Origin: an uncultured archaeon
GTDB taxonomy: Archaea; Thermoproteota; Nitrososphaeria; Nitrososphaerales; Gagatemarchaeaceae
Direction of reading: 5' to 3'
Length of the DNA: 64,000 nucleotides
Assembly (NCBI GenBank): GCA_963799775.1
Contig: CAWCYD010000003.1
Span: forward strand, 640,001 to 704,000
The notes under the pieces are model-generated. The model did not search any database, had not been told where the DNA came from, and saw nothing but the letters and a program-made list of their open reading frames with translations. The position numbers and the translations under genes are program-made. Below, piece by piece: positions 17,653-50,776 of this stretch (positions are counted from its first letter, which is position 1; every line of letters starts with the position of its first letter).

Positions 17653-17886
17653 ATGAATTCTCTGTTTCTGCACAGGCTGGTCAAGGCGGCGCCGTTCGCA
17701 ATGACCGTCTTCGGCGTTCTCTTAATGGCCCACGGGGTTCATGGAGTCGTCCACAACGGGGATCCGGGAGGCAATGGCGGACCCAACATCCACGCCATCT
17801 CCAACGGAGACCCCGGCGGCAACGGTGGGCCCAACCTTGGCAGGATTTCTAACGGCGATCCGGGCGGAAACGGTGGACCTAACTAG
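17653..17886 (+). CDS. Small secreted prepeptide with three NGDPGGNGGPN cores (peptide A)
   Basis: 77 aa: basic N-region, hydrophobic stretch, AHGVHGVVH, then three 16-aa-period repeats that differ only at synonymous positions within the cores. Confidence 0.85.
   Translation: MNSLFLHRLVKAAPFAMTVFGVLLMAHGVHGVVHNGDPGGNGGPNIHAISNGDPGGNGGPNLGRISNGDPGGNGGPN
17755..17883 (+). repeat. Three 48-bp-period coding repeats
   Basis: Cores start at 17755, 17803 and 17851; identical 11-aa peptide with 6-7 synonymous differences per pair. Confidence 0.9.
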
Positions 17887-18986
17887 GTCCACCGTTGGGC
17901 CTTTATTCTCATCTTCTGAGGGAGGATCTTCTCCAGAGCTGACTTGGGCTCGAAGAACCATCCTTTCTCGTCATCGTAGTTCTCGTAGGGGATCGTGTAC
18001 CAGAAGCTCGTGGACAGGTCGAGCGTCCAGGCCGTCCATGTGCCCACTTGCGCGCTGAGATGCTGTGACAGGAACCTCATGGATTCCATGAGCGACCCAG
18101 CTGGGACAGCGCAATGCACCTGGTAGTAACCGTCTTTCCGGCCGGCTTCGAACCAGGAGAACGGGAAGTTGTTGAACAAGGTCCTGAGCGCCTCTAGATT
18201 CTTCTTCGTCAGGTTGTTGAACTCGTAGACGAGCCCTGCTGAGGTGCCTACGTCCTTCTTCGAGTCCGGGAGCCAGTGGACGTAGCTGGAGAGGGCCGTC
18301 GGAGATACGTGCTTCGCGTAATGCCAGCGCAACGTCCGCTCATTGATGCGGAGCTTCCTCGCTATCTCTGCGATGTTACGCCAAGAGTCCAGCTCGAGCT
18401 CCTTTATGATCAGGGTGTCGGTCGAGTCGATCTCTGGCGATGCGCTTGGTTCTTCCGCGCCCGATATCGCTGGCGGCTTCTCCGTCTGTTTTGCAATCTC
18501 GTCCCAGTCTATGGACCAAGCCCCTCGGCTGAAATCATAGAATCTGCTCTTGATCTCCGGGTGTCGAGACCACTCCAGCCTTTCTATCCGGGCCTCTGTC
18601 AGCACGCCTTCATGCACGAGCCTGTCCATGAACTTTCGGAACTCGTCGGTGACGGCGACAGGGACTGCGAAGAACGAAAGATAGCGAAGGTCTGCCGGGC
18701 TCTTCACCCAATAGGTCAGGAATGCGGAGGAAGAGAGGCTGTCGAGGATTGCCGGAGCGGAGTTCCTGGATTCCTCCGTGAACTTCATCACGACGAAATA
18801 GCGCTCGAGCCCCATGTAGTCGTAGTTCACGGGCGTCCTGATGTCCAGGCCCAGGGTAGGAAACCTCTTCTTCACCGTGTATCTTACGGTCTCTACCGGC
18901 ATCCCGCTCATCCGTGAGAGGAGCGAGATGTTCTGGATCCCGACTCTGTCGATTGCCTCAATCAGCTTTGTGATGTCCCGAGTCAT
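17883..18986 (-). CDS. Tandem Lrp/AsnC-like (HTH-RAM x2) transcriptional regulator A
   Basis: N-terminal HTH (NISLLSRMSGMPVETVRY), VNYDYMGL linker, second IDSTDTLIIKELELDSWRNIAEIARKL Lrp-type HTH. Confidence 0.8.
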   Translation of the reverse strand: MTRDITKLIEAIDRVGIQNISLLSRMSGMPVETVRYTVKKRFPTLGLDIRTPVNYDYMGLERYFVVMKFTEESRNSAPAILDSLSSSAFLTYWVKSPADLRYLSFFAVPVAVTDEFRKFMDRLVHEGVLTEARIERLEWSRHPEIKSRFYDFSRGAWSIDWDEIAKQTEKPPAISGAEEPSASPEIDSTDTLIIKELELDSWRNIAEIARKLRINERTLRWHYAKHVSPTALSSYVHWLPDSKKDVGTSAGLVYEFNNLTKKNLEALRTLFNNFPFSWFEAGRKDGYYQVHCAVPAGSLMESMRFLSQHLSAQVGTWTAWTLDLSTSFWYTIPYENYDDEKGWFFEPKSALEKILPQKMRIKAQRWT

Positions 18987-19082
18987 CTGTCAGGACAAGC
19001 GCCTCCGCCTAATCCCTAATAAAGATAATAGATTTTGCGAAAATATATGAGGTCCAGAATCCTGTGAATGGTCGAAGCCCCG

Positions 19083-19742
19083 CTAGACCATTTCGGGAGG
19101 CTTCCAGGTCACCTTGAGCTCGCACTTGACGCCATTGACGGCCTCGCAAGCGAGCTCGTACGCTGTCGCCTCGACCGCGAGAAGGGTTGAGACCATGCCT
19201 TCGATGTAGCCCCGCACATACCAGCACCTGGGCTCCTCGTCGACCGTATTTCTCACCATAGGGGAGTTGTGCATCGATATCCTCGCTTCGTTATGGAGCA
19301 AATCAATCTCTTCGATCTTGATCGCGCCCCAACCTAGTTTGTTGTAGGTGTGCGCGAGCTGCGCTGCCAACTGGTCGATGCCCACCTCGTCCGCAAGGTT
19401 CGCGAACTTCTTGCCTTCCGTCTTTCCCACGGTCTTTCCTGCGTTATACCAGATGACGAAGGCTCCAGTTCCAAGGACGGAGACTTCGCTCTCATAGACG
19501 CGCCGCAGCGCTTCGCCAGAGATCAGGACCCAGTCCTCCCCTGATGAGGCCCGAAGTTCTCCCCGGGAAGCGTCGAGAGAAGGCATCACGTCTTCGTCCT
19601 TGACGTGCGGTCTGCCCTCCACGGAGTGGAAGGAGCGCTCAGAGACAATATTCGCTTTCTTTCCATTTCGGAAATTCCCGGCCCGCATCTTTCTGCAATA
19701 GAACGAGAATCTGAATTCAGCATCCACACGAAACCAGCACAA
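19083..19742 (-). CDS. V4R-domain protein (true start probably downstream of 19742)
   Basis: LGTGAFVIWYNAGKTVG, KLGWG, PRCWYVRGYIEG, ELACEAVNGVKCEL. Confidence 0.85.
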   Translation of the reverse strand: MCWFRVDAEFRFSFYCRKMRAGNFRNGKKANIVSERSFHSVEGRPHVKDEDVMPSLDASRGELRASSGEDWVLISGEALRRVYESEVSVLGTGAFVIWYNAGKTVGKTEGKKFANLADEVGIDQLAAQLAHTYNKLGWGAIKIEEIDLLHNEARISMHNSPMVRNTVDEEPRCWYVRGYIEGMVSTLLAVEATAYELACEAVNGVKCELKVTWKPPEMV

Positions 19743-19781
19743 TTACTTTATGCATTTGCTGACAGCGCTTAAATTCCTAAA

Positions 19782-19958
19782 GTGCTAACCGAAAAGCTGG
19801 GTCAGAGAACGAAGAAAGAGATCATCTCGGTCTCGAAAGACAACGTCAGTCTACGTTTGGTGATAACGAGGAAAGACGACGTCTCGACTCCACGCGGAGA
19901 CGCAGCAAACAAGACTGCCCCGAAGCTGCAGAAGCCCATAATCATTCAACGCAAGTAG
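19782..19958 (+). CDS. Putative 58-aa basic small protein
   Basis: GTG 19782: MLTEKLGQRTKKEIISVSKDNVSLRLVITRK...KPIIIQRK*; TTTATG about 30 nt upstream. Confidence 0.35.
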   Translation: MLTEKLGQRTKKEIISVSKDNVSLRLVITRKDDVSTPRGDAANKTAPKLQKPIIIQRK

Positions 19959-20018
19959 CAACCTCGCCGCCGCACGCAACTTTCTCCTCAGCCAACCGGC
20001 TTTGTCTTCTGGCGTCGC

Positions 20019-20492
20019 TTGATGAGTTTTCACTCTCGTAAAGACTTATGTAGCCTGTTGCCGTTTGCATGGGATGTCGTGGAAGGGTCAGTTAATTCGG
20101 TATCAATCCTCGATATCGACTCGCTAGTCCGAAAGTATAGGAGAGGAATGGTCAACTCTCTCCTGGAGTACCTGATCCTGAACTCGCTCGAAAAGAGCAA
20201 GATGTGCGGCTACGACATTATCAAGCTGCTGCACGAGAGATTCCACACGTTGCTCAGCCCCGGACAGGTCTACCCGGTGATCGATCATCTTGCGAGGCAG
20301 GGCCTCATCGAGAAGGAGAAGGAAGGGAGGTCCGTGATGCTCTCCGCGTCCCACCTCGGACAGTCATTGCTAAAGGCGTGGAGAGAGGAACTGCGTAGCA
20401 TCCAGATGGAAGTAGACAATCTTGGCGTCCAAAAGCCAGGATTGGGTCGCGGGAGTGAAGCGCTTCGTCTCGATCCCATCCTCGCGAGTTAG
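20019..20492 (+). CDS. PadR-family transcriptional regulator (start uncertain)
   Basis: LEYLILNSLEKSKMCGYDIIKLLHERFHTLLSPGQVYPVIDHL. Confidence 0.85.
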   Translation: MMSFHSRKDLCSLLPFAWDVVEGSVNSVSILDIDSLVRKYRRGMVNSLLEYLILNSLEKSKMCGYDIIKLLHERFHTLLSPGQVYPVIDHLARQGLIEKEKEGRSVMLSASHLGQSLLKAWREELRSIQMEVDNLGVQKPGLGRGSEALRLDPILAS

Positions 20493-20559
20493 TGTTTTCA
20501 CAAGAATCTATACGTTTATTAGTGTATAATCCCTTCCAAATGATTACAGGGTGTGGTAG

Positions 20560-20901
20560 TTGCCAACGACTTGGGCCGTAGCCAGGTTCAGGACGAACAT
20601 CATTCGGGAAAACCTCCAGTTGATGGTCTTGAGTTATTTGAGACAGTCTGAGCTATCCGAATGGGAAATCCTCAACCTGCTTCACTCCCGACACAATGCG
20701 ACGCCAGGAGAGAGAGAATTCCGGAAGCTGGTCGACTCCCTAACTCAGGGAGGCTATGCAGAGTCAGAGCTGGTCTCGGGAGACCGGAAATTGCGTCTGA
20801 GCCGAAAGGGGATGGACCTGCAGAGAACGCTCGCGAAGGAGTACAAGGCCGTGATGGCAAGGTTGAACGCCTTCTCTGCAGCTGAGTTCGCGAGAGGGTA
20901 G
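20560..20901 (+). CDS. PadR-like winged-helix protein
   Basis: LQLMVLSYLRQSELSEWEILNLL...RKLRLSRKGMD. Confidence 0.7.
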   Translation: MPTTWAVARFRTNIIRENLQLMVLSYLRQSELSEWEILNLLHSRHNATPGEREFRKLVDSLTQGGYAESELVSGDRKLRLSRKGMDLQRTLAKEYKAVMARLNAFSAAEFARG

Positions 20902-20908
20902 CGGCCCC

Positions 20909-21278
20909 TCAGGCTATCTTGTAGCGGTTCGCTGCCTTCACGATAAGGAATATCACAAAAGCCACGATTATGAAAGTGAGGACTGCATTGGCGAAGTCTC
21001 CGATCCCGAACCCGTCGACCGCGTAAGTGTTGATGTTTGTGCCTTTCGGAAGGGCTAGACCGACAATCGGGAGGATCAGGTCGCTGACGAGGGCCTTGAC
21101 CACGCCTCCCAGGTATAGGCCCAGGATGAACGCGACGGCGAGGCCTATGGACCTTGTACTCGGCTAGGAAGGCCTTGAACTCTTGCGCCATTCCCTTTGG
21201 TTTCGGAGGGTCGGGAGGCTTCTTGAGTGCATCTGAGATCTTGCGGAGCTCGGCAAGGATCTCGTCATCTTTGTCCAA
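20909..21278 (-). CDS. mscL: Large-conductance mechanosensitive channel MscL (frameshift near 21150)
   Basis: EFKAFLAEYKV/IGLAVAFILGLYLGGVVKALVSDLILPIV...GDFANAVLTFIIVAFVIFLIVK. Confidence 0.9.
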
Positions 21279-21415
21279 TTGCTACAACGATTCGATTTGA
21301 GAACGGCATATATAACAAGTTCAGACAATCATAGTGAAAAATCTCGCGGGGCCGCTCAGGCCGTGAATGCCCTGCGGTCGCGACAAGCGGGAAGGACTAT
21401 CGCAGGCGACTTGCC

Positions 21416-21730
21416 TCAGCGCATTATTTCCATTCGGTGAGTCGGATAGATGAGGCCCTCTGCGTTGGAGTTAGGCTCCATGAAGACCGATTCGACCTCT
21501 TGGAAGCGTTTCAACAGGGTGAGGCCGTCGGAAGTCGGGGTGACGACCACTCCGGATGGGGTGTCCTTGCTCTCGAGTATGCCCTTCTTCTCGAGCGAGT
21601 CTAGAGCGTCGTTCAGGACTGTCCAGGCTAGGTTCGCCTTGTACATGATCCTCGTCCGCTTCATCTCTCTTTCCTCGGCGACTACCTTCATGATGTCCAT
21701 GAAGACTTCCAACTTCGACCTTCGAATCAT
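21416..21730 (-). CDS. Archaeal winged-helix regulator (HTH_45-like)
   Basis: RRSKLEVFMDIMKVV...RTRIMYKANLAW. Confidence 0.85.
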   Translation of the reverse strand: MIRRSKLEVFMDIMKVVAEEREMKRTRIMYKANLAWTVLNDALDSLEKKGILESKDTPSGVVVTPTSDGLTLLKRFQEVESVFMEPNSNAEGLIYPTHRMEIMR

Positions 21731-22118
21731 CTTAGGACGTGTTCCGGGAGCGTCTTAGATATCCTTGTTAGGCCTCACGCCAGAAATCGAGGACCGATAT
21801 TTATGGAAAATGACAGAAATCCACGCTTGGTTCAATCTCGTTCGGGAGGGGGACGACGCGCGGGGGGCTCAGGAGTGAATCGGCTAGGGGATCATGGACG
21901 GATTTTGGCGACTTTGATGAAAATCGCACTCTGCAGTCATTCTCGCGGCTGCTTTCCTGCCACACAGACGGTCTTGCAACGAGTTACGGCCCGAATATTA
22001 TGAATGTTGCACAAAAGGCAGGCGCTTTCGAGAATTGTCGGAAATCAAAACATAGAGCCAGAGCATAGATTCTTCATTCACTTTCCCTTTATAGATTAGC
22101 ACCGCTTCATTTCGCGTC

Positions 22119-22655
22119 TTGCAGGGTCTGTCCAAGAGGACGCTGGAGGGAGTCATAAGGACCGACCTCACATCTGCGAGGACTCTATACATGTCCGCCA
22201 ACTCTTGGCTTCAGATCGAAGACGACCTCTTCAGGACCTTCTCGACAGGCGCCTCGATGTTCTTGATCCACCTGGGGACATATTACGGCAAGTCGATTAC
22301 CAAGGAAGCGAAGCTCTCGTTCACAGACCCGCAAGGGATCTTGGACAGGCTCAAGGCCATGATGCTAATCGCTGGTTGGGGAGAGCTCTCGATTCGGTGG
22401 AGACAAGGCGATGAGAGGAACCTCGAGATGGAGTTGAAGAACTGCGTCTTCTGCTCAGAAGAGACGAAGGCCTTGTCTTGCTATTTCTTGCAGGGCGTGA
22501 TGGCGGGGGCGCTCTCGGAGACGTTCGGGCGGGAGTACAAGGTCTCTGAGACAGAGTGTTGCAGGAAGGGCGCGGACTCGTGCAAGCTCCACGCCACAGT
22601 GTCCGCAGTCCGAGAGACGGCAGGGATATTCTCTTCGTCCTCGGAGAGCAACTAG
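22119..22655 (+). CDS. V4R-domain protein
   Basis: FSTGASMFLIHLGTYYG, AGWG, NCVFC, SCYFLQGVMAG, ETECCRKGADSC. Confidence 0.85.
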   Translation: MQGLSKRTLEGVIRTDLTSARTLYMSANSWLQIEDDLFRTFSTGASMFLIHLGTYYGKSITKEAKLSFTDPQGILDRLKAMMLIAGWGELSIRWRQGDERNLEMELKNCVFCSEETKALSCYFLQGVMAGALSETFGREYKVSETECCRKGADSCKLHATVSAVRETAGIFSSSSESN

Positions 22656-22658
22656 CGC

Positions 22659-22908
22659 GGCTCTGTCCAATCCACTGGACTTGGAGACATCGACTGGCCG
22701 GTTTCGCTCCGGTTCCATCGCTTCACACGCCTCCCGCTCCTCGCCGAGCCACAGCGAGACATCTTGTTATCTTAGAGTCCATCACCACAAAGGGCATCGG
22801 TGGACTCTTTGCTCTTCTGAGGTTACAGAGCATGACCCAGTTGCGTCATATTCGGGCCATCAATTTAAGCGCCCATGCGTCCAGCGAACTTGACAGCGGC
22901 ACAGTGCC
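22659..22908 (-). mobile_element. MITE-like orphan omegaRNA element related to tnpB element 1
   Basis: Minus strand GGCACTGT...GGACAGAGCC with an ATGGGCGCTTAAAT promoter. AAGATGTCTCGCTGTGGCTCGGCGAGGAGCGGGAGGCGTGTGAAGCGATG resembles the tnpB1 3' end AAGATGTCTGGGTCAGGCTCACTCAGGAGCGCGAGGCACAGATGAAGCTGTG. Confidence 0.65.
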
Positions 22909-22938
22909 AAGGGTCTCGGCAAGACCTTCCACACGCGG

Positions 22939-23514
22939 TCAGTAATGCTCGCTGAAACGGGGAAGCTCAAGAGCCATCATCAGTTCTTCGACCGTCCTAA
23001 CGCAATAGTGGATGCCCCTGCCTTTCTCGGCGATCTTTTCCATGAATGCTGAGGGCTTTAGAGAGAGTTCGACCGCATCAAGTCTTATCTCTGCCTTTGC
23101 GATTTGCTCGCACAGCGGAAGAGGGTCTGGCCCTTTGTTGCCTCCATCCCCTATGAGCTTTATGCGGCGGACCGCGGGACGCCGCATCCTGTCGATCGTG
23201 GCGACGCTCTGCATCAGGTTCTTTGCGTACGAAAGGGCGTCGCGGACAGGACTTCCTCCCGTCGGCGAGAGGTCGGCCAGGTTGGCGAGCTCCGCCCTCG
23301 TAGGTGTGACCATCAACGGCACAAGCTCCTGGATGTTGGTCTTGCCGATGACGCCTTTGAGGTTATAGGACGCGATCGCGACCTTGAGCGGCCATTCAGG
23401 ATAGAAATTAGGCCACGATTCCGAGCAGAACCTCCTCAAGGCCTCCTTGACGATATCAATCTTCGGATGGCCCTTGAGTTTCTCCTTCATGCTGTTTGAG
23501 GCGTCGACAAGCAA
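22939..23514 (-). CDS. von Willebrand factor A (VWA) domain protein
   Basis: MIDAS LLVDASNSM, GGSP, LIGDG. Confidence 0.85.
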   Translation of the reverse strand: MLVDASNSMKEKLKGHPKIDIVKEALRRFCSESWPNFYPEWPLKVAIASYNLKGVIGKTNIQELVPLMVTPTRAELANLADLSPTGGSPVRDALSYAKNLMQSVATIDRMRRPAVRRIKLIGDGGNKGPDPLPLCEQIAKAEIRLDAVELSLKPSAFMEKIAEKGRGIHYCVRTVEELMMALELPRFSEHY

Positions 23515-23635
23515 TACTCTGTATTCAGCGGTCCTCTCTACGGTGCTCGCAGCAGGTCATCTCCGCCTGCCGAGCATCCATTCGTCACGCTATATGCAAG
23601 ATGGAGATTAGTTCCACGCTGGACGGTCGCTGGCT

Positions 23636-24470
23636 CTACTTTGCCAGCATGCTGATGGTCAGGTCCCACGGCGTGAGTATCATCTTCCTGTCCTTCGTGA
23701 TAAGGCAACGGCCGTCCTCCGCGTTGATCCAGCTCAGAGCAGAGGCCGCGTCCAGTTCGGGGTCCACGAAGACGGGCTTGTGCAACATCGGGCCCATCGA
23801 CTTGATCGGGGAGTCAAGGATCTCTCCGGGAGAGTCACGCAGCCTCCCTAGGTTCACCGGCGAGAGGAGCCACTTGATGATGCCCCTGTCGGAGACCACG
23901 AGGCCCGATTCCTTGACGAAGAGGCGCCTGACGTGCTTGTCGAGCATGGTCTGAATGGTGTCCATGACGCTCAGGTTCTCGCTCACGCTGACCAGCGGGT
24001 TTGAAGCCTTGTCCCTCGCCCTCACGTTGGTTATCTTGGCAGTGTAGCCAGACTTGACCAGGAAGGAGGCTATGTCCAGGAGGCCGACTAGGTTGGTCGG
24101 GGCGCCGTTCGGCGCGACGACGATGGCGTAGCCCCAGCCCTGATTCATTATGCTCTTCACCACGGTCTGGACGTCGTCCTCAGGCTTGACCAGCAGGGCA
24201 CCTCATCTTCGAGTCGGCGATCCTCGTCTGGTAGAAGGTGGTCCACACCGTCTTTCGGTTGACCAAGCGGAGCACGTTGTAGCCGAGTATGATGCCCGTC
24301 GGGGCGCCTGCCTGGTCGACGGCCACCACGCCCTCGACATCGAGCTGCGAGAGGTGCAGGCCTGCCGATATGATCGGCTCGTTCTCGTTGATCTTGTATA
24401 GAGTGCACGGGGAGGCCTCGAGGATGGACTTTACGGAGGCACCTGAAATCGAGATGCTCTTCGAGGCCAA
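23636..24470 (-). CDS. CBS-domain protein (frameshift near 24200)
   Basis: ASNPLVSVSENLSVMDTIQTMLDKHVRRLFV; N-terminal half in ORF 24180-24470. Confidence 0.75.
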
Positions 24471-24514
24471 CAGGTCAAATTTCGCACACTCAATATTTAT
24501 TCCTTAGGGATTTG

Positions 24515-25800
24515 GGCTCCTCGATATGGGCGATTAAATACTCTAGCATCCGATTAGAGCATGTCTGTCGTTGCCATGCTCTCGGTTTGGCAGCCTCATG
24601 ATAACGGTGTCTTGACTGGAATTCTACGTGAATGCAGGATCCTGACATACAACGCAATCGAATATGCTGAAAACAACGGACTAAAGAGCAGGAAGCAGAT
24701 GAACGGGTTCTACCGGTCGATAAATAGTGTCAATCTACCATCCTGCTTCAAACTCGCAATAATTACGCGCGCCTGTTCTGTACTTAGGAGTAGGAGAAAG
24801 AGCGAAAACAAATCCGTCCAGGTGAAGTATCGAAAGCCTCTGAAGCTTATGGCCTGCATAACAGCTGGATTCTTCATTACCTCTAAGGGCAAGTTGTTCA
24901 TCTCGCTGGGTCATGATAAATTCGAGATGGTCCAACTCAACTGCTACGCCTTCGCCAAAGTCTCTGCGCCCAATATCAAAATGAGGAGCCTGACAATAAC
25001 AGAAGATAGGATTGGAATCTGCTACTCGAAACAGGTTGAAGCGATACATTGTCATCGAGTCTTCGGTGTCGATAGGAACGAGAAGAACCTCACTTTTGGC
25101 AATCGAGATGCATTCGAGACGATAGATCTGTCACAGATAGCGCGAGTGAATCAGACAACGAGAGAGATCCTGAGCTCCTTCAAAAGAAACGATGATAGAG
25201 TCAAGAGACGACTATTCGATAAGTACTGGGGACGGGCCAGTAGAAGAACGAATCAGGTGCTCCACGATGCGACTAACCGTATCGTTGAAAAAGCTAGATC
25301 TGAGGGTGCGGCGTTGGCCCTTGAGGACATCGCAGGAATCAACAAGATGTATCAGAAGGGCAACGGGCAAGGAAAAGACTATCGATTCAGGATGAATTCC
25401 TGGGCGCATGGAAAGACATGCAGGATGATCGATTACAAATCTGCCGACAAGGGCGTGACTGTTGTGAAGCTCACAAAAACAGAGACCAGAGGGTCTTCAT
25501 CGACTCATTTTGGGTGTGGGGAGAAGCTCCAAAGCCCAGCCAAGAGAGATCTGGTTCATCGGCGACACCTCTGGTGCAATAAATGCGAGCGTTGGGTTCA
25601 CCGCGACGTCAACGCGGTGTTCAATCTGGCTGACAGGGGGCTGTCCAGGCTTGCCAGTTCCCTGCCTCCTTCTGAGAAGATGGAGGTGAAAGGGCATGCA
25701 GGTGAAGCTATGAATGGGAATCCGACGACGATGGCAGTAATCCCAGGAGCAGATGCCATGCAAGTGGACTCTGGGTGCGAACCGAAGAGTTAACAGAGCC
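24515..25800 (+). mobile_element. tnpB-only element 2 with GGCTC termini and a putative 8-bp target duplication
   Basis: GGGATTTG|GGCTCC...ACAGAGCC|GGGATTTC; internal ATGGGCGATTAAATA promoter; AT-richer than the flanks. Confidence 0.65.
24561..25793 (+). CDS. tnpB: RNA-guided endonuclease TnpB (intact RuvC D-E-D)
   Basis: FGVDRNEKN, LALEDIAGI, WCNKC, HRDVNAVFNL. Confidence 0.9.
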   Translation: MSVVAMLSVWQPHDNGVLTGILRECRILTYNAIEYAENNGLKSRKQMNGFYRSINSVNLPSCFKLAIITRACSVLRSRRKSENKSVQVKYRKPLKLMACITAGFFITSKGKLFISLGHDKFEMVQLNCYAFAKVSAPNIKMRSLTITEDRIGICYSKQVEAIHCHRVFGVDRNEKNLTFGNRDAFETIDLSQIARVNQTTREILSSFKRNDDRVKRRLFDKYWGRASRRTNQVLHDATNRIVEKARSEGAALALEDIAGINKMYQKGNGQGKDYRFRMNSWAHGKTCRMIDYKSADKGVTVVKLTKTETRGSSSTHFGCGEKLQSPAKRDLVHRRHLWCNKCERWVHRDVNAVFNLADRGLSRLASSLPPSEKMEVKGHAGEAMNGNPTTMAVIPGADAMQVDSGCEPKS

Positions 25801-25827
25801 GGGATTTCGGACACTGAGCAGGCCCGA

Positions 25828-26250
25828 ATGGACCTTTCGCTCCTGATCCACCCCATTATCGCCGCCAGCGCCGTCCTCCTTGTCGCGACCACCTACCTTC
25901 TGAAATCTCGGAGAAAGCTCTACTTTCGGCTCCATTACGCGGCAGGGATTCTCGCCTTTTCGTTGTCGATGTTCGCCTTTCCCCTGGGCCTATACTTTGT
26001 GCTGAGCAGCGGTGGCGTCTCGCAGTTTCCCGAGGAGATACTCTTCCACACCGTGAACTTCTTCGCCGTGGTGGGCATGATAGTGATCCAGGGGGGATTG
26101 GGCATGGGGATGCTGCTCTTCGGCAGGAGAAGGGAGGCCTACAGGACGCACAAGCGGCTCGCGAAGTACGTGCTTGCAATCTTCTTACTTCAGGGAGCGC
26201 TAGGTCTGGCGACCCTATACGGCATATTGCCATTCGTATTTGGGTCCTGA
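25828..26250 (+). CDS. Four-TM membrane protein with conserved His (cytochrome b561/DUF420-like)
   Basis: ATG 25828; IHP, RLHY, FHT, RTHKRL within or next to TM helices. Confidence 0.6.
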   Translation: MDLSLLIHPIIAASAVLLVATTYLLKSRRKLYFRLHYAAGILAFSLSMFAFPLGLYFVLSSGGVSQFPEEILFHTVNFFAVVGMIVIQGGLGMGMLLFGRRREAYRTHKRLAKYVLAIFLLQGALGLATLYGILPFVFGS

Positions 26251-26356
26251 GGGGAAATATGAGAAACCCCTGAGAAAGGTGGAAGCATGCTTCAGAGAGC
26301 TTATACCCAAGGGAGAAACGAATTCACATGCGGATAGTTCGCTTGGTGTGTGATAG

Positions 26357-29479: not shown

Positions 29480-29485
29480 CCGGGC

Positions 29486-29869: not shown

Positions 29870-29922
29870 CGGCGCCGAGGTTGGCTTAAATGCTCTGACC
29901 TGGGCCGGGTCGAAGCGCCGGC

Positions 29923-30892: not shown

Positions 30893-30907
30893 CACGATTC
30901 ATTAGCG

Positions 30908-33187: not shown

Positions 33188-33259
33188 TTCGGCCCCGAAC
33201 CATTAGGATATAAACAATTTGGGTCCGAAACAAGGAACCGCAGTCCTGACCAGAAAACA

Positions 33260-37491: not shown

Positions 37492-37600
37492 ATTCGAAAG
37501 GCCCTCGAAGGGTCGTTATAGCGGTTGCGAGAATCGCGCCTGCTGAGAAACCGAAAAAATTCCTAAATACCCTGATAGGGGGTCAGGCACGAAAAATAGT

Positions 37601-38017: not shown

Positions 38018-38018
38018 C

Positions 38019-39371: not shown

Positions 39372-39482
39372 TGCGAGGAAATCGGGCGGCCATGCGTCTA
39401 ATAACGGTTGTCGGAGCCGCCGGCTTGCGCTCGTCGAACCTCACCGAAACTCCTAAAGCCGAAATTCGAGGGGGCAGTCTCC

Positions 39483-40537: not shown

Positions 40538-40547
40538 GGTCGAAGAC

Positions 40548-41962: not shown

Positions 41963-41990
41963 ACTCGCCGTCCGCGGAAGCTCCGGCCAT

Positions 41991-43710: not shown

Positions 43711-44846
43711 GCCCTATCCGGGAAGGCTTCGAGCGTGTCTATCAGCTTTGGCACAAAGTCGTAGAGGTCGGCCACCACGGAGTACTGGGCTGCAAGATGG
43801 ATCGGGGCAGCAGGGTCCGGGTTGACCGCGAGTATCTTCTTTGCCTTGATGCCGCCTCTGTGAGGCGCAGAGCCGCTCACTCCGAGGGCGATGTAGAGCT
43901 GGGGGCTGACGAGCGTTCCGGTCTGACCCAGCTCGTGGTCTCTTGTGACTATCCCTTCCAGCGCCTTTACGTTCGCCATCACGAGCCCTCGCGACGCTCC
44001 GATCTCCGTCTTGAGGCCCCACTTGCGCTCGATGAGCTCCTTCAGCTCTGTAGCGAGCTTGAACGCCTCCATAGGGTTCCTTGGAGAGCCGTCGGCCCCG
44101 CGGAGGATTCCCATGCCGAGGCCGATCACGACGTCCGCGTGCTCGAGGTCGAAGTTGGGCTTTGGCAGCTCGACCAGCTCCTTCACGGTGAGGGCGTACG
44201 CCTTGCCGGGTCGGGGCATCTGGAGCTTCTCGACCTTCGCGTTCGCCCTCCTGCTGGGGTTGCGGGGCAGCGGGGCGAAGCTCCCGGGCTTTAGCGTAGC
44301 GACCTGAGGCCTGTGGCGTGGCGTCCAGATCTTGGCCACTCTGCTGCCAAAGTCAGGCCTCACCTGGGTCATCGTCTTCGGGAACATCTCGTTGAACTTG
44401 GGATTGAAGTAGTCCTGGACCTCAAAGTCGATGTTGTCCGTGGCAAGGCCCGAGTTGACCCTGTACGCCAGCCTCGCGGCGAGCTCCCTGCCGAACTCGG
44501 TCGCGAGGAATATGATCGCATACGGCTTCCTCTTCAGTATCATCGCCTCGAGGGTGTCGATCAGTCGCAGGGAGTGATAGGTCCGAAGCGCAGGGTCGTC
44601 TACCACGAGCACAAGGTCTGCGCCGTGGTCGATCGCCTCCTCGGGGAGGCCCCTCAGGTGGTTCCCGAGGATCAGGCCCACGAGCTTCTGCCCTACCTGG
44701 TCTGCCACCTTGCGGCCTGCGGCGAGCAGCTCAAGCGAGTCGTTGGAAAGGTGCCCATCGTCCCTCTGGAGGAATACCCAGACGTCCTTGTAATCGGCCA
44801 GGACGACCTTCGCTGAGGTGGTCGCGGCAGGCGCGGTGGTGCTCAT
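43707..44846 (-). CDS. etfA: Electron transfer flavoprotein alpha subunit
   Basis: GRELAARLA, GASRG, GQTGTLVSPQLYIALGVSGS. Confidence 0.92.
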   Translation of the reverse strand: MSTTAPAATTSAKVVLADYKDVWVFLQRDDGHLSNDSLELLAAGRKVADQVGQKLVGLILGNHLRGLPEEAIDHGADLVLVVDDPALRTYHSLRLIDTLEAMILKRKPYAIIFLATEFGRELAARLAYRVNSGLATDNIDFEVQDYFNPKFNEMFPKTMTQVRPDFGSRVAKIWTPRHRPQVATLKPGSFAPLPRNPSRRANAKVEKLQMPRPGKAYALTVKELVELPKPNFDLEHADVVIGLGMGILRGADGSPRNPMEAFKLATELKELIERKWGLKTEIGASRGLVMANVKALEGIVTRDHELGQTGTLVSPQLYIALGVSGSAPHRGGIKAKKILAVNPDPAAPIHLAAQYSVVADLYDFVPKLIDTLEAFPDRA

Positions 44847-46045
44847 GCCAGCAGCTCCTCTCCGAGCATGGACACGGTGAACGGCGTGAGGGCCCCCCTT
44901 GCGCTCCAGTCATCCTTCAAAGCCTGCGGCAGCGCGTCTGCCACGTCTCCCTTTTCGAAGGGCCCTACCTCCTTCCCCTCCCACGTCGTCTTGTCGACGT
45001 GCTTGGTAAAGACGAGGCTCTTGTCGAGAGTCTTTTGTCCGGAGGGCGCCCCCATGATAATGGCGGGACCCACTATCACGGCCGACCCGCCGAACCCTAG
45101 CCGGGCGGGGTCCGCCTGGAGCACGTCAGCGGTCCACTTTATGGGCTCCCTCACCCCCTTGCCCTTGTAGTAGTTCTCGACCACCCGCCCAAAGTCCACG
45201 AACTGGATAGTCTTTGCCACATACTCTGGTGCGAACGTCATCAGGCATGGGGCGTCCATCTCTAGCCTCTGGAGCCACCTGCCTATCCTTCTGTCGGCGT
45301 GGATGCGCAGCGTGTCGGGATCGACGTCTAGCTCCTCGACGTAGGTCGCGTGCGGGAGCTCGATCCCCATCTTCTGGGATACCACCTCGGCTACCTGCGG
45401 CCCGACGCTCCCCGTCTCGCCGTCCGTCGTGCGGATCCCGGCGACCACCACGAACTTTGTGACGTTGGCCCTCTCAGTCTTCAAGCGGGCCGCGGCCTCT
45501 TCGCGGGTGAGGTTGCCCTCCACCAGGTGACCGATGACCGATGTCTTGGTCCCTGGCTCCTCGTTGTAGACCTTGTTTGGCAGGAGGTTCTGGTCGTATA
45601 GCTCCCTCGCCTTGGCCTCGATCTCCTGCATCGAGGATGAGCCCGAGACCATGGAGATCAGCGCGTCGAACGGCGCGACGTGCCTCTCGTAGATCTTGAA
45701 GACGGCGTGCCCCACGGCATAAGAGGTCGCTACCGTGTCCGAGCCTGCCAGCTTCGGGTCGCTGAGTATGATCTCCTCGTCGACGCCCGTCGCCTCGGCG
45801 TTGAAGAGCGGCGTGAGCACGGGCTTTAGCCTGGCGTCAGGCCCCATGCTGAGCGTGACGATCTTCCCGCCAACCCGCCTCTTCAGGTAGTCTGCCCCTT
45901 CTATCGCCTTCTCGTCGTTTGGGTTCACCACCATCTCCATCGCATCGCGCTGGACGATGTTGTCGACGCGGACGACCTTCGCTGTCCGAGCCGGAACGCC
46001 TTTTACCAGTGCTATGATAAGCAATTTGCGACCCTCGCTCAGCAT
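44843..46045 (-). CDS. etfB: Electron transfer flavoprotein beta subunit (long form)
   Basis: VNPNDEKAIE, LSMGP, GSDTVATS, TDGETGSVGPQVAE. Confidence 0.9.
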   Translation of the reverse strand: MLSEGRKLLIIALVKGVPARTAKVVRVDNIVQRDAMEMVVNPNDEKAIEGADYLKRRVGGKIVTLSMGPDARLKPVLTPLFNAEATGVDEEIILSDPKLAGSDTVATSYAVGHAVFKIYERHVAPFDALISMVSGSSSMQEIEAKARELYDQNLLPNKVYNEEPGTKTSVIGHLVEGNLTREEAAARLKTERANVTKFVVVAGIRTTDGETGSVGPQVAEVVSQKMGIELPHATYVEELDVDPDTLRIHADRRIGRWLQRLEMDAPCLMTFAPEYVAKTIQFVDFGRVVENYYKGKGVREPIKWTADVLQADPARLGFGGSAVIVGPAIIMGAPSGQKTLDKSLVFTKHVDKTTWEGKEVGPFEKGDVADALPQALKDDWSARGALTPFTVSMLGEELLA

Positions 46046-46105
46046 TCCGGGGATAAAAGTATTAGGTGAAATAGCCGAAATATGTGTCGCTTCGCTTCCT
46101 CTTTC

Positions 46106-47023
46106 TCAGAGCGACCCTTCGATGGCCGCGATGCCTTCCTTGATCGTCTCCGCGCCCTTTGTGAACTGGGCCTTCTCCCTGTCGTTGAGGTCGAGGGGCA
46201 ATATCTTCTCGACCCCGTTCGCCCCTAGGACGAGGGGCACTCCGATGCAGACGCCTTTGAGGCCGTACTCCCCCTCCAGGTAAGCCGAGGCAGGGATCAC
46301 CTCCCTCCTGTCCAGGGCGATCGCCCTGACCATCTTGACCACCCCGTTCGCAGGGGCGTAGACTGTGGCGCCCTTCTTGGATATCACGTCGATCGCGACC
46401 CGCCTCGTGGCCTCCATAGCCTGGTCGATCTGGGTGTCGTCCATGAGCTTCGTGAGGGGGACGCCGCCTATCGAGGTGAAGCGTGCGAGCGGGAGCATGC
46501 TCTCGCCGTGCTCTCCGATCACCAGCGAGGTGATGGAGGAGTGGGACACGTCGAGCATCGCCGAGATGGTCGACTTGAACCTCGAGAGGTCGAGGACTCC
46601 GCCCATCCCGATCACCTTGCCCTTGGGGAAGCCGGTCTTCCTCAGGACGACGTAGTTCATGACGTCCATCGGGTTCGTCACCGTGATCGCGATCGAGCCG
46701 GGCGCGTGCTTGGCCAGCTCCTTGGCCACGGAGGCAACGATCCCCGCGTTCTTCTGGAGAAGGTCCATCCTCGTCATCCCCGGCTTTCGCGCGACCCCTG
46801 CTGTGATCACGACTATCTTCGAGCCACGGAGCGCGGAGAAGTCTGTGGAGCCTCTCACGTCGACGTCGACACCTGTCTCCGCGATCTTCTGCGAGATGTC
46901 GATGGCCTCTCCTTCCGCCAGCCCGGGGACGACGTCGACGAGCGTGACGTCATCTATCCCTGCGGATGCTACCTCGAGGGCAGACTGCGCGCCCACGCGT
47001 CCCGCGCCGAGGAATCCGATCAA
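46106..47023 (-). CDS. mdh: Malate dehydrogenase (LDH-like)
   Basis: GAGRVG, TAGVARKPGMTRMDLL, VTNPMD, GEHG. Confidence 0.95.
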   Translation of the reverse strand: MIGFLGAGRVGAQSALEVASAGIDDVTLVDVVPGLAEGEAIDISQKIAETGVDVDVRGSTDFSALRGSKIVVITAGVARKPGMTRMDLLQKNAGIVASVAKELAKHAPGSIAITVTNPMDVMNYVVLRKTGFPKGKVIGMGGVLDLSRFKSTISAMLDVSHSSITSLVIGEHGESMLPLARFTSIGGVPLTKLMDDTQIDQAMEATRRVAIDVISKKGATVYAPANGVVKMVRAIALDRREVIPASAYLEGEYGLKGVCIGVPLVLGANGVEKILPLDLNDREKAQFTKGAETIKEGIAAIEGSL

Positions 47024-47091
47024 TCTATGGTCCGCGGAAGCGCCCAGAGACGATTAGAAAAAGGTAGGCATCTCCGGCTCGAGATGTTATC

Positions 47092-47379
47092 TCAGAGCCG
47101 CAGCCCGAAGGATTGGGCGAAGTCCTCGAACTGGACGTAAGCCTGGAGGAACATGATGCCCTTGTCGCTGATCTTGTACTTTGAGCTCTTCTCTGCCGCC
47201 TCTTCGGTGAGCAAGCCCGCGCCCACCAGCTCCACTATCAGCTTCGTCATCCTAGAGTACGAGACGTTACCGCGTCTGAGCAGAGTCGTTATCCCGACCC
47301 CTTGTCCGTCCTGGTTCAGGTCGCGGGCAGTCGCGAGTACGTCCGCGATGATCTTGCCCTGGGTTCTATACTGGGGCAT
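47092..47379 (-). CDS. Winged-helix regulator (HTH_45-like)
   Basis: YRTQGKIIADVL...ITTLLRRGNVSYSRM...YKISDKG. Confidence 0.85.
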   Translation of the reverse strand: MPQYRTQGKIIADVLATARDLNQDGQGVGITTLLRRGNVSYSRMTKLIVELVGAGLLTEEAAEKSSKYKISDKGIMFLQAYVQFEDFAQSFGLRL

Positions 47380-48013
47380 TCAAGAACTCTCCTGGCTTTC
47401 TGAACGAGAACTTCAAGACTGGGACGAATAGCGCGACTAGTCCAACTTCCCTCATCAATAGCTGCAAGAATGTTAACAATAGCATGTCCGGCGCCGCGAG
47501 AGAGACCCACCAGCCTGCGGCGAGCATCCCCAGGCCCGTCGCGATGAAGAGCGTGTTAGGGTTCTTTGTCTTCGAGTAGGACAGCGTCGTCTCGAGCACG
47601 CCGTAGAGGATGAAGAAGAATGACAGGCTCTTCAGGACCGTCTCGACGCTCGTGGAGCTGACGGCGAATATGGGCAGGAGGATCAAGAGCGGCCCCAGTC
47701 GCTGTTTGACAACCACGTCCAGGACATGGGAGAACGCCAAGAAGAAGTATCCGACCGTCTGCAGGAACAGCCCGGTGATCAGCAGCGTCGACGGCGAGAA
47801 CTCGGGCCCCTGGAGGTTGGTGAACGCGCCGACGCCTTCCAGGCCCTGGAGGATGAAACCCGCGCCCAGGAAGACGAATGCGGAAGTCAGCCGGAGCATG
47901 GAGGAGCTGCTGGTCTCTCGCAGGCCCTTGTAGGAGACTGCGGCTATGGAGAACGCTACGAATGCCCCAATAAACTGTAGGGCGTTCTCGAACATGACCA
48001 AATCCGGTCCCAC
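47366..48013 (-). CDS. Approximately 7-TM membrane protein co-transcribed with the wHTH gene
   Basis: Hydrophobic throughout; overlaps the downstream wHTH start. Confidence 0.7.
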   Translation of the reverse strand: MGPDLVMFENALQFIGAFVAFSIAAVSYKGLRETSSSSMLRLTSAFVFLGAGFILQGLEGVGAFTNLQGPEFSPSTLLITGLFLQTVGYFFLAFSHVLDVVVKQRLGPLLILLPIFAVSSTSVETVLKSLSFFFILYGVLETTLSYSKTKNPNTLFIATGLGMLAAGWWVSLAAPDMLLLTFLQLLMREVGLVALFVPVLKFSFRKPGEFLNAPV

Positions 48014-48083
48014 AGACCTTAACCTAGAGTCCGGAGGGCCGATTGAATATAAAAGCTTGATGTCTGAGCTATGCTAGTTCGTC

Positions 48084-48300
48084 GGCTCATGGTTGCGAGG
48101 TGGCGCTTAAGTATGCTCACCCGCTTATTGCATGATGTTCGCTGATAGGGGGCTGTCCAGGCTCGCCAGTTCCCTGCCCTCTCTCCGGAGGGCGAAAGGG
48201 CCCGCAGGTGAAGCTATGATTGGAGACCCGGTGACGGCAATCCCAGGAGCAGATGCAGGCAAGTTGACGCTCCGGAAAGAGCCGGAAAGTTGACAGAGCC
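48084..48300 (+). mobile_element. MITE-like orphan omegaRNA element related to tnpB element 2
   Basis: 48141-48300 aligns by eye with 25629-25800 (GCTGA-AGGGGGCTGTCCAGGCT-GCCAGTTCCCTGCC, GCAGGTGAAGCTATGA, AATCCCAGGAGCAGATGC, ACAGAGCC); left end GGCTCATGG...GTGGCGCTTAAGTA. Confidence 0.8.
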
Positions 48301-48430
48301 GATGCACGAGCGGTCGACGCGGAAACGCTCTGGAAACGCCTTCCGTGAACCTCGCAGGGATTTAGTTTTGCACAACCATTAAATAGGTGTAAAATTATTT
48401 CAATAATAACTCAATCCGGAGTGCAATCGT

Positions 48431-49370
48431 TTGTCATCCGAAAGAGATTTCTCAAGACTGATGAAGTTGCAAAGGGCTCTCGACAAGTGCCCTCGTTGTG
48501 GCAAGGGTCATATGGTCGTTGACAACACGGGCGGGGAGCTCGTTTGCAGTGCCTGCGGTTTCGTGGTCAAAGAAAAGATAGAGGAGACGGGTCCGGAGTG
48601 GCGGGCTTTCTCGAAGGAAGAGAAGGACGACAGGTCCAGAGGAGGGATGCCGACCTCGATCGCGATGCACGACATGGGGCTCGCGACGGTCATCGGCGGG
48701 ACGAACAAGGACGCGTCGGGCAAGTCTCTATCCGGGTCGATGAAGGCGACAGTGGAGAGGCTCAGGACATGGGACAGCAGGAGCCAAGTCCACGAACCCA
48801 TGGACAGGAACCTGAGGCAAGCTTTCAGCGAGCTCGACAGGCTCTCCGACAAGCTCTCTGTCTCAGAGGCCGTCATCGAAAAGGCTGCTTACATCTACAG
48901 AAAGGCGCTCGAGAGAGGTCTGGTGCGCGGCAGGTCGATCTCCGCGATCATTGCGGCATCGCTCTACGCTGCGTGCAGGGACAGGGAGACTCCGAGGGAC
49001 CCTGAAGGACCTCGCTGTGGTATCAAACGTGAAGAAGAAGGACATCGCCAGGTGCTACAGGCTCCTACTCAAGGAGATGGACATCAAGATGCCGGTTGTC
49101 GACCCGGCAAAGTGCGTCTCAAGGATCGCATCCAGGGCGAGCCTCTCCGAGAGGACCAAGAGGAGGGCATTAGAGATATTGAAGAAGGCCGAGGAAGCCA
49201 GGATCTCCGCAGGAAAGGACCCGATGGGGCTGGCCGCAGCCGCGCTCTACGTGTCTTGCACCCTCGAGGGAGAGGACAAGACTCAGAGGGACGTCGCGGA
49301 GGCCGCCGGGGTGACCGAGGTCACGATAAGGAACAGGTACAAGGGCCTGCGTTCCGCGCTGGGCATCTAG
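48431..49370 (+). CDS. tfb: Transcription initiation factor IIB (frameshift near 49000)
   Basis: CPRCG...CSACG zinc ribbon, GPEWRAF, HDMGLAT, LVRGRS, GKDPMGLAAAALY, VTEVTIRNRY. Confidence 0.95.
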
Positions 49371-49479
49371 ACGAGTTAGCAAGCGATCCCTGCACGGGAA
49401 GAAAATGGAAGGGAAATTCATATTCGCTTTACATAACCGGTAATATCCATTCACGGTCTGGACTTCAGGTCTCAAGTAC

Positions 49480-50651
49480 TTGTTTTCAGAGGAAGCCCAG
49501 CGTGAAGCCCAGCCCGATTCGAGCGCAAACATCGTCTCCTTGGTCAGGCTTCTCTCCGACATAGGCCCTGACATCGCCGAGATCTCCAGGCGTCTGGGGC
49601 AGTTCAAGGAGAGCGTGAGATACCGCTACAGGGAGAAGGCATAAAGCGAGGTTTTGCAATCAAGGCAGACGTGGACTACGGGGCCCTTGGGTTGACCAGG
49701 GTCGTGATGAAGCTCAGGTTTTCCCCGATGTACACGCAACAGTCCCACAAGATTCTCGAGGTGTTGAGCAATCTATCCTACCTCGTGGCATATGCTGGGA
49801 CGATGCCAAACGATCTCTACATAGTTCATGCAGGCGTCCCCACGGAGTTTACGGAGGAATTCCATCGACTGATGGAGAGCCTCAGGGACCGGGGGATGTT
49901 CATGTCGGTGGAGTTCTATGACTGCAACTGGTTCAGGGTCGCGCCGATGCGGGCGGAATGCTTCAACTTTGACGAGGGTGTCTGGGACTTCGATTGGAGC
50001 AACCCGCCACCGATAGAGGAAAAGGCTGCTCGTGCCACCATCAGCGAGAAGAAACCTCTCGACAAGGTGGACCTTCTCATCGTCAAGGAGCTTTGGAAGG
50101 ACAGTAACCGCTCGCTCGTAGAGATTCGCGAGGCCATCAAGAAAGTGAACGGCGTTGACATCAACTACAAGACTCTCGGGTGGCACTTCGCACACCACGT
50201 GTTGGGACACCACCTGATCAGAGACTACTCGATAACCTGGCACGGCATGAAGTACAACAGCGACCTTCAGCAAATCACGCGAGTCGGGAAGCACGGTTAT
50301 CTTGGGGCGTCGCTCATACTTCGAGAAGCAAATGAACAGGAAAAAATGCTAATGCGAGGCCAACTCAATCGTCTGCCGTTTCTGTGGTCCGAAGCGTCTG
50401 GCGAGGTCTACTACGCACAGCTCTTTTTCCCGCTAGAAATGATTAATGAGGCCCTGGAATATCTCAAGACTCTGCTAAAGCCGTACGGGGATAGAGCCGA
50501 GCTCTTCATTCTAGACAGAAGGGAGATGACGTCATTCACGATAGGTTATCAAATGTGGGACGAGCGAAGCTCCCAATGGAGCTTCGACCGTGAGCGTCTT
50601 CTTGGCCGTCTGGAAAATACACTTCTGAAGGTTGCGGACAGAAGAGCCTAG
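49480..50651 (+). CDS. Tandem Lrp/AsnC-like regulator B, paralogue of 17883-18986 (frameshift near 49640)
   Basis: TTG 49480: ...LLSDIGPDIAEISRRLGQFKESVRYRYREK / KRGFAIKADVDYGALGL...FNFDEGVWDFDW...LDKVDLLIVKELWKDS...INYKTLGWHFAHHV. Confidence 0.8.
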
Positions 50652-50776
50652 TCCGCGTTTCCGCCGCCTTCAAACGCCTTCAAGTGGACTCCTGCATGCA
50701 CACCATGCGCTGTCATGAAGAGTGAGAAGGCTCCAAAGACGACCAACGCGTACCTTACCTTCTGATCGAGTTCCAT
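50648..50776 (-). CDS. Small hydrophobic prepeptide B (42 aa), homologue of peptide A
   Basis: Manual translation MELDQKVRYALVVFGAFSLFMTAHGVHAGVHLKAFEGGGNAD*; below the ORF-track cutoff. Confidence 0.8.
   Translation of the reverse strand: MELDQKVRYALVVFGAFSLFMTAHGVHAGVHLKAFEGGGNAD

Follow-up and report, generated by a model that had tools for sequence, protein, structure and literature searches.

Tandem Lrp/AsnC-like regulators with adjoining small hydrophobic precursors: a candidate peptide ligand-receptor cassette in Nitrososphaerales archaea

Introduction

Can an archaeal regulator have as its ligand a peptide encoded by the gene next door? This question is raised by two loci in a 64,000-nucleotide (nt) stretch of the genome of an uncultured archaeon of the Nitrososphaerales (assembly GCA_963799775.1, contig CAWCYD010000003.1, positions 640,001 to 704,000; hereafter the window, whose positions are used throughout). 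At each of them a large regulator gene is met by a very small gene with a hydrophobic product, and we refer to them as locus A (regulator A and peptide A) and locus B (regulator B and peptide B). An earlier interpretation made from the letters of the window, here called the sequence-only reading, had proposed that each pair is an archaeal counterpart, without homology, of the RRNPP systems of bacteria and phages, and that no archaeal system of this form had been described.

Cell-to-cell signalling among archaea is poorly known. A paper of 2025 (PMC12240190) counts only three true cases of archaeal quorum sensing, the signal being a peptide in none, and names filI as the only gene tied to it by experiment. 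Literature searches on RRNPP systems in archaea, on archaeal quorum sensing, on tandem or fused Lrp proteins and on archaeal peptide pheromones together with Lrp, with subscription journals outside their coverage, yielded no description of the pair, in agreement with the claim of novelty. The words Lrp, AsnC and quorum are absent from the main text of a genomics paper on a related family (its supplementary files lay outside the search), and in PMC12700828, from the search on RRNPP systems, ‘archaea’ is found only in the reference list. The supplements of PMC10640624, which could list these genes, fall outside this literature negative. Among the family libraries, no model in Pfam or NCBIfam describes either protein.

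Results

Peptide A is encoded on the forward strand at positions 17653-17886, and its 77 amino acids (aa) start with a basic N-region; about 15 hydrophobic residues, the motif A-H-G and three units of 16-17 residues follow in turn. Regulator A is encoded on the opposite strand (17883-18986) by one intact frame of 367 aa; two winged helix-turn-helix (HTH) plus RAM-like domain units are fused in it, and each is followed by a motif of the type Y-D-F..G.W..D-W. The two genes lie tail to tail. The stop codon of the peptide gene, TAG, occupies 17884-17886, that of the regulator gene is the reverse complement of 17883-17885, and the two overlap in a CTAG at 17883-17886.

The three units of peptide A are arranged in tandem with a period of 16 residues, and each contains the same 11-residue core, NGDPGGNGGPN (17755-17787, 17803-17835 and 17851-17883, the last being the C-terminus of the peptide); the sequence-only reading had covered only the first copy. 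The cores are identical as protein. Their DNA differs pairwise at 7, 6 and 6 of 33 bases, with copy 1 differing at 7 from copy 2 and at 6 from copy 3, and every change is synonymous. The orthologues in three further genomes (G156, G118 and G174) carry 3, 2 and 3 copies, respectively, which again are protein-identical within each genome and differ at 4-7 of 30-33 bases, all synonymously; two positions of the core vary between genomes and none between the copies in one genome. This pattern of synonymous-only differences shows that the frame of peptide A is translated, that its repeated tail is under purifying selection, and that selection holds the copies of one precursor alike. The repeat period equals the length of the segment that follows a conserved glycine in single-unit peptides (14-17 residues). 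This equal length suggests that the repeat unit is the released product of the precursor, and fits the release of several equal peptides from one chain.

Locus B has the same design, with peptide B on the reverse strand at 50648-50776 (42 aa, a single unit, listed as P0217), tail to tail with regulator B and with the stop codons again overlapping in a CTAG (50648-50651). The small open reading frame (ORF) extends over 50648-50827, and the ATG at 50776 is its likely start. Peptide B is matched by the peptide profile described below at E 4.1e-12. The regulators of the two loci are paralogous (25% identity over 336 columns, BLASTP E 5e-27), and the motif pairs quoted in the sequence-only reading lie in this alignment; peptides A and B align with 12 of 30 residues identical (E 1e-4 for a single comparison). 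The single gene assumed at 49480-50651 is in fact split, in contrast to the intact frame of regulator A, by a one-base frameshift near 49639-49640. The N-terminal HTH fragment of 54 aa (49480-49644, forward strand) is thereby cut off from the remainder (49638-50651, forward strand), whose frame is open from 49572, shows homology from about 49638 and has its first listed start codon at 49671; two bases rather than three separate codons 49636-49638 and 49641-49643. The orthologue in genome G156 is unbroken, with about 390 codons. Beside regulator B, a TFIIB-type (TFB) gene at 48431-49370 also occupies two frames, split near 48950-49000, with its N-terminal part matching the TFIIB zinc ribbon and first repeat. 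As this neighbour is frameshifted too, and as the source genome is 81.67% complete though in only three contigs, assembly indels and true pseudogenes are equally likely explanations of both frameshifts.

The linkage of the two genes was followed through an order-level sample of 201 genomes, in tallies that count in the unpublished genome G108; nothing else reported here depends on that genome. Regulator matches occur in 66 of the 201 genomes: 38 of 40 in the family of the source genome, all 13 of family f7, and none of 40 in either f12 or f15. A profile built from 18 peptides (alignment A1) has 94 matches in 58 of the 201 genomes, with per-genome E values down to 5e-17 in other genomes, and follows the same phyletic pattern (0 of 40 genomes in f15 and 1 of 40, a weak match with E 0.005, in f12). 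Comparison by hand of the positions of peptide and regulator matches placed 77 of the 89 peptide matches with E<=1e-4 in convergent orientation to a regulator homologue and 8 in divergent orientation; 2 are orphans and 2 are unassigned, one lying at a contig edge and the other in G108. All eight divergent pairs are from family f7, with about 100-450 nt between the genes. Adjacency is thus kept after the orientation has flipped, which rules out the possibility that the small ORF is a by-product of the 3' end of the regulator gene.

Within the source genome there are six regulator paralogues and four peptide genes, namely A, B, the peptide gene of a convergent pair at 231 kb of contig C3 (peptide C, next to an intact regulator at 231476-232555) and an orphan, so that three of the four peptide genes adjoin a regulator; the maximum per genome elsewhere is 10 regulator matches and 5 peptide matches. 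When 35 regulator loci were inspected, a small hydrophobic ORF was found just past the stop codon in 23 and one locus was unclear. A 4-bp overlap of stop codons occurs at L001, L006, L008, L010 and L081, and such overlaps at both window loci are as the sequence-only reading had it. In a tree of 33 regulators, peptide-linked members are found in most clades; there is one peptide-less clade (100/100 for six of seven rows), and four further absences are scattered. Beyond the order, the regulator profile matches in 75 of 301 sampled genomes of the phylum. At 8 of 28 loci in other families, the regulator gene is followed by a convergent small ORF whose hydrophobic product is of a more distant type. 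A library of representatives at 50% identity holds 219 regulator relatives at E<=1e-30. When the ORFs of 24 contexts, each of 12 kb, were compared all against all by BLAST, the regulator family alone proved to be widely recurrent (23 loci); the next-commonest neighbour families reach at most 6 loci, and some loci share several neighbours and therefore look syntenic.

Some further observations concern these loci. The orphan peptide gene of the source genome (contig C3, 1840815-1840928, outside the window; L063, 1973-2143) has no regulator beside it and encodes an Ala/Gly-rich tail; an orthologous orphan lies on contig C3 of G156. The well-supported peptide-less clade includes L002 and L003 (source genome, C3 at 601 kb and C1 at 15 kb, near-duplicates of each other) and L033 (G150), and in these a gene for a multi-span membrane protein, which by eye resembles a UbiA-type prenyltransferase, lies past the regulator gene in the same orientation. 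Past the regulator stop of L018 (contig C7 of G029) there is an open frame without a start codon that resembles the C-terminal half of a peptide (…SALDIIGG…), possibly the remnant of a peptide gene that has decayed or been frameshifted. The distant convergent ORFs (L092, L093, L095, L096, L098 and L099 in family f35; L076 and L081 in f33) encode 44-58 aa of a sequence type such as M-Q-L-E-E-F-A-L-K…, ending in K-V/I/L-P-x, and are built alike, with a conserved N-part, a hydrophobic stretch, a glycine and a short tail.

The 169 peptide clusters found in the protein collection are all labelled ‘hypothetical’, none of them has a Pfam family, and NCBIfam holds no model for the peptide. There are two main types, of 40 aa and of 43-44 aa, which share an N-region D-x-K-I/V-R-x-G, a hydrophobic stretch, an invariant glycine, a hydrophobic segment and the motif D/E-x-x-G-G, followed by an end of 3-5 variable residues. 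These features replace the HGVH motif and the acidic-x-GGN tail that had been put forward as hallmarks; exact AHGVH-like motifs occur in the source genome at the two window loci alone. Across the family, precursors measure 40-77 aa and carry between one and three units, each 14-17 residues long; their hydrophobic stretch has 14-19 residues, and only 14-16 in the source-genome peptides A, B and C. Variation rises steeply toward the C-terminus, as had been claimed from the two divergent tails: among 55 distinct 40-aa peptides the mean entropy is 0.19 bits at residues 1-10, 0.58 bits at 11-25, 1.20 bits at 26-36 and 2.06 bits at 37-40, and there are 38 distinct last-four tails.

Topology and cleavage site were judged by eye and from simple counts. 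In all 55 type-1 peptides the position three before the putative cut after the invariant glycine holds A, T or S; of the 52 type-2 peptides, 50 have A or T there. As the -3/-1 rule for signal peptidase sites is matched at this glycine, the small-x-Gly site fits a cleavable signal peptide of the kind cut by signal peptidase I. The charges flanking the hydrophobic stretch are 0 to +2 on the N-terminal side and -1 to -2 on the C-terminal side. A prepilin-type (class III) signal, for which K or R is expected two residues before the glycine, was judged by eye and discarded, since a hydrophobic residue stands at that position relative to the N-region glycine.

To what kind of protein does the regulator belong? 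The profile matches, the predicted fold and the HTH_AsnC-type signatures place it, as a predicted fused tandem Lrp/AsnC-like protein, in the Lrp/AsnC superfamily, and the sequence-only reading of a tandem Lrp protein is borne out. Both halves of the regulator family profile match solved Lrp/AsnC proteins (E 2.8e-5 and 3.2e-5), with profile positions 180-236 matching the HTH of ST1022 (E 2.8e-5) and other matches covering the HTH plus RAM-type domain of PH0061, PH0140 and LrpC. The AlphaFold model of regulator A (predicted local distance difference test, pLDDT, 90.7; predicted template modelling score, pTM, 0.89) shows an HTH followed by a beta-alpha-beta-beta-alpha-beta domain, twice over. Foldseek matched this model to single Lrp/AsnC regulators at target-normalised template modelling (TM) scores of 0.56-0.68, and best of all to the fused siroheme decarboxylase NirDL (4ch7; E 1.1e-9, TM-scores of 0.51 and 0.58 when normalised to the query and the target, respectively, 10% identity). 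Chains of 350-400 aa with two HTH-RAM units are found family-wide, as against one unit of about 150 aa in ordinary Lrp/AsnC proteins.

Pfam signatures of this kind are recognised in part of the family. The AsnC-type HTH (PF13404) is found in 33 of 47 family members at E<=0.01 (best E 1.7e-9), regulator A itself having a weak match (E 0.035) below the cut-off, and none of the 47 matches the Pfam RAM model at E<=0.01, the RAM-type domain being recognised by its fold. No Pfam or NCBIfam model reaches its cut-off with regulator A. AsnC_trans_reg2 (PF17805) was found neither in the source genome, its six paralogues included, where control genomes do match, nor in regulators A and B when Pfam matches up to E 1 were considered. 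Pfam scans, a profile search of the PDB and the fold search revealed no TPR-type domain in the regulators, which upholds the claim that they are not homologous to the RRNPP receptors; a phage collection contained no homologue of regulator A. Close homologues in a collection of 5.8 billion proteins are labelled ‘hypothetical’ or, loosely, ArsR or Lrp, and their named sources are Nitrososphaerales or Thaumarchaeota archaea.

The sequence-only reading had proposed that regulators be modelled together with cognate and swapped peptides, and for one cognate pair such a model was obtained. The intact pair of the source genome at C3:231 kb, modelled with alignments of 39 and 41 rows, reached a complex score of 0.63 (runs of 0.63, 0.69 and 0.58), as against 0.01 for the best of three controls. 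Of 80 solved complexes 58 attain this mark, as do 2 of the 110 mismatched pairs; these counts apply only roughly to a model made from custom alignments. At least 82% of the contacts are shared among the runs, and the pLDDT of the partner is at least 64. The contacts of lowest error join peptide residues 33-38, which form the variable tail, to regulator residues 325-329, 86, 88, 187-188, 250, 289 and 322, and the contacted strand belongs to the second RAM-like domain and faces the first. The model thus supports a predicted binding of the tail between the two RAM-like domains. We know of no solved complex of an Lrp protein with a peptide from which the model could have been remembered.

A conserved block precedes peptide gene A at 17599-17629 (forward strand), reading TAGTAAC-N6-CTGCATA, followed by a TATA-like box, ATAATA, which lies 24-29 nt ahead of the ATG. 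Of its 31 nt, 22 columns are invariant before the A-type peptide genes of nine genomes, and the flanks do not align; the block presumably acts as a promoter or operator. Its two half-sites differ from each other, as would befit a pseudo-dimer whose HTHs are also unlike. Upstream of another subgroup of peptide genes a different block is conserved. In the source genome the A-type block has one exact match and one more, elsewhere, with one substitution; a circuit acting through this block alone would therefore only feed back on the peptide gene. The block is absent upstream of the A-type regulators, and a shared operator was rejected on both grounds, neither recurrence in the genome nor presence before A-type regulator genes being found. 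The regulator genes have upstream elements of their own that differ from this block: a TTTATTAGG-like box about 25-40 nt before the start of the regulator A orthologue at most of eight loci (L001, L007-L013), and a TTTCGCAAA or TTTCACAA element further upstream at four of them.

Other genes lie near the two loci. A gene for an Rce1-like (CPBP) intramembrane protease (50932-52173, reverse strand; PF02517, 37.8 bits against a cut-off of 22.4), the sole copy found in the source genome, adjoins peptide gene B on its upstream side and in the same orientation, and this layout recurs in G156 (contig C1) and G174 (contig C62), both of the same genus. The matches covering 38 of the 41 family genomes showed no further case of the adjacency, and as it is confined to one genus the protease was rejected as a part of the module, with which it is possibly associated. 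Directly upstream of regulator A is a gene for a V4R-domain protein (19083-19742, reverse strand; Pfam 37.3 bits). It falls in no cluster with the ORFs at 13891-14772 and 22119-22655 (both forward strand), which form one family present in 6 of the 24 contexts. A PadR-family regulator gene is found at 20019-20492 (forward strand; Pfam 37.6 bits). The source genome also encodes two SBP_bac_5 oligopeptide-binding proteins, a faint sign that peptides may be taken up.

Discussion

We tentatively favour the reading that the two genes form a peptide ligand-receptor cassette, similar in its logic to the Rgg/SHP or RRNPP systems and not homologous to them, a reading that we hold to be slightly more apt to fail than to stand. 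It draws on four lines of evidence: the linkage of the two genes; the concentration of variation in the tail; the multi-unit precursors; and the predicted contact of the tail with the regulator. According to this reading, the large gene would encode a cytoplasmic receptor-regulator in which two Lrp/AsnC-like units, being fused in one chain, would make a built-in pseudo-dimer, and the small gene would encode a precursor that is exported and cut at the small-x-Gly site. The released unit or its tail would return to the cytoplasm, perhaps through an oligopeptide ATP-binding cassette importer, and bind its cognate regulator between the two RAM-like domains; the regulator would then act differently at the conserved promoter block of the peptide gene and possibly elsewhere. 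Paralogous cassettes with different tails could serve as separate channels, and their signalling may depend on cell density.

A bolder version is also conceivable, and we give it a little less credence: that these cassettes represent the first archaeal systems in which a gene-encoded peptide is the signal for a receptor. It would entail a double-Lrp receptor and a peptide of about 15 residues that is exported and re-imported, with the channel set by its last 3-5 residues; an origin independent of RRNPP and Rgg; many private channels; signal amplification through precursors of 2-3 units in one lineage; and the first Lrp-family protein with a dedicated gene product as its natural ligand.

A number of our results weigh against a ligand-receptor cassette. 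Eleven of the 35 inspected regulator loci are without a peptide gene, so that the recurrent small ORF anticipated past regulator stops is a feature of most loci and not of all, and the two orphan peptide genes, orthologues in two genomes, are without a regulator. Neither an exporter, a protease nor an importer recurs beside the pair in the 24 contexts of 12 kb. Peptidase_C39 was not found in the source genome at its 81.67% completeness, where 7 of 14 control genomes match, and no output gene is evident. The best structural match of the regulator is an enzyme, and its binding to DNA is presumed. As to the peptide, its N-terminal ten residues are the most conserved part, far beyond the needs of a plain signal peptide, and they make no confident contact in the complex model; the hydrophobic stretch (residues 16-26) of the uncleaved precursor contacts the regulator as well; and positions predicted to be in contact exceed the average entropy by only a little (2.44 versus 2.16 bits), a difference from which no co-variation is claimed, as neighbouring genes have a common history.

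Several of these points are to be expected if the small protein, hydrophobic as it is, is never cleaved, resides in the membrane or the cytoplasm and sets the activity of the regulator by direct binding, as a subunit, tether or anti-regulator, with neither secretion nor re-import. The strongest conservation, in the N-terminal ten residues and the hydrophobic stretch, would then be explained, as would the absence of recurrent transport or processing genes and the contacts that residues 16-30 of the uncleaved precursor make in the model; those of the hydrophobic stretch could be an artefact of modelling an uncleaved chain, or could mean that the whole small protein is the partner. The tight linkage (85 of 89) is likewise what a stoichiometric partner would show. 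However, protein-identical tandem units are hard to explain for such a partner and are typical of precursors that are cut into equal peptides, and the lowest-error contacts in the model are made by the tail, not the helix. A hydrophobic stretch of 14-16 residues, as in peptides A, B and C, is short for a stable membrane span, and by the positive-inside rule for membrane topology the flank charges, a weak signal, place the tail outside. We consider this alternative unlikely, though the likeliest of the three.

Somewhat less probable still is an arrangement in which the regulator, a local transcription factor that senses a metabolite, controls the small gene, and the peptide has a role of its own, membrane-active, antimicrobial or at the surface, without ever binding the regulator. 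Lrp/AsnC regulators commonly control a gene beside their own, their known ligands are amino acids, and the conserved block before the peptide gene suits such control; variable tails and expansion by paralogues are also known from bacteriocin-like peptides. Against this, the tail-centred complex score of 0.63, with controls at or below 0.01, would have to be a false pass of the kind seen in 2 of 110 mismatched pairs. Most pairs, moreover, are convergent, with stop codons overlapping or nearly touching, rather than divergent around a shared control region, and no immunity or export genes recur nearby. Finally, that the tandem Lrp-like protein does not bind DNA and is an enzyme or chaperone that binds or modifies the peptide, as a maturation or precursor-recognition factor, is suggested by the top Foldseek match to NirDL and by the predicted peptide contact, and is very improbable given the AsnC-type HTH signature in 33 of 47 members, the absence of PF17805 from the source genome with its six paralogues, the 10% identity to NirDL and the lack of recurrent partner enzymes nearby.

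The module is a concrete and widespread candidate for archaeal peptide signalling, with both parts encoded side by side in abundant soil archaea that do not oxidise ammonia. Peptide communication among archaea becomes testable with synthetic peptides and recombinant protein, without the host first being brought into culture. If the ligand-receptor reading is true, the range of Lrp/AsnC ligands would widen from amino acids to dedicated peptides, and the regulator-propeptide design would have evolved convergently, the cassette being a clean example. Should the reading be wrong, the pair would still be an undescribed and strongly conserved combination of a small protein with a regulator.

How does the cassette compare with known systems? 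As defined in PMC13361665, the Rgg/SHP systems of streptococci share with it a cytoplasmic regulator (predicted here) that adjoins the gene for a short hydrophobic peptide. In that account the streptococcal genes are laid out divergently or convergently, with the group III peptide gene overlapping the end of the regulator gene, and both layouts occur here too (77 convergent and 8 divergent of 89). The same paper gives the SHP pheromone as DI[I/L]IIVGG, with the active C-terminal piece starting near a conserved Asp or Glu, to which the piece led by Asp or Glu in the archaeal motif D/E-x-x-G-G is comparable. However, the archaeal receptor is tandem Lrp/AsnC-like instead of consisting of an HTH-XRE and a repeat domain, 3-5 variable residues follow the G-G, some precursors have 2-3 units, and the hosts are archaea. 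Export, Eep-like cutting and import by Opp have been shown for SHP, whereas the archaeal pair is known from genes and models.

The RRNPP systems (Rap-Phr, NprR-NprX, PlcR-PapR, AimR-AimP) likewise combine a regulator with an adjacent small precursor and have several cassettes per genome. To the export signal and the short C-terminal mature signal of the RRNPP precursors would correspond the hydrophobic N-part, the site that fits signal peptidase and the C-terminal tail, different between paralogues, of the archaeal ones. There is no homology, as the archaeal receptor has a predicted tandem Lrp-like fold and no TPR-type domain. Peptides with double-glycine leaders that are processed by C39 peptidases also have a conserved G-G just before a variable C-terminal piece, but here this piece has only 3-5 residues, the motif is located after and not within the N-terminal leader, and the 81.67% complete source genome yielded no Peptidase_C39.

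On the side of the receptor, the fused tandem Lrp-like architecture is that of the siroheme decarboxylases NirDL and AhbA-AhbB, NirDL being a known example of such a chain. In contrast to the archaeal regulators, which lack the PF17805 signature and are 10% identical to it, NirDL is an enzyme of haem synthesis, and to our knowledge no peptide gene is linked to siroheme decarboxylases. With the Lrp/AsnC regulators proper (ST1022, PH0061, PH0140, LrpA and Lrp of E. coli) the archaeal protein shares the AsnC-type winged HTH followed by a beta-alpha-beta-beta-alpha-beta domain. It departs from them in that one chain of about 365 aa unites two such units, both of which carry an aromatic motif in addition, and in that its predicted ligand is not a free amino acid but a peptide encoded by a gene.

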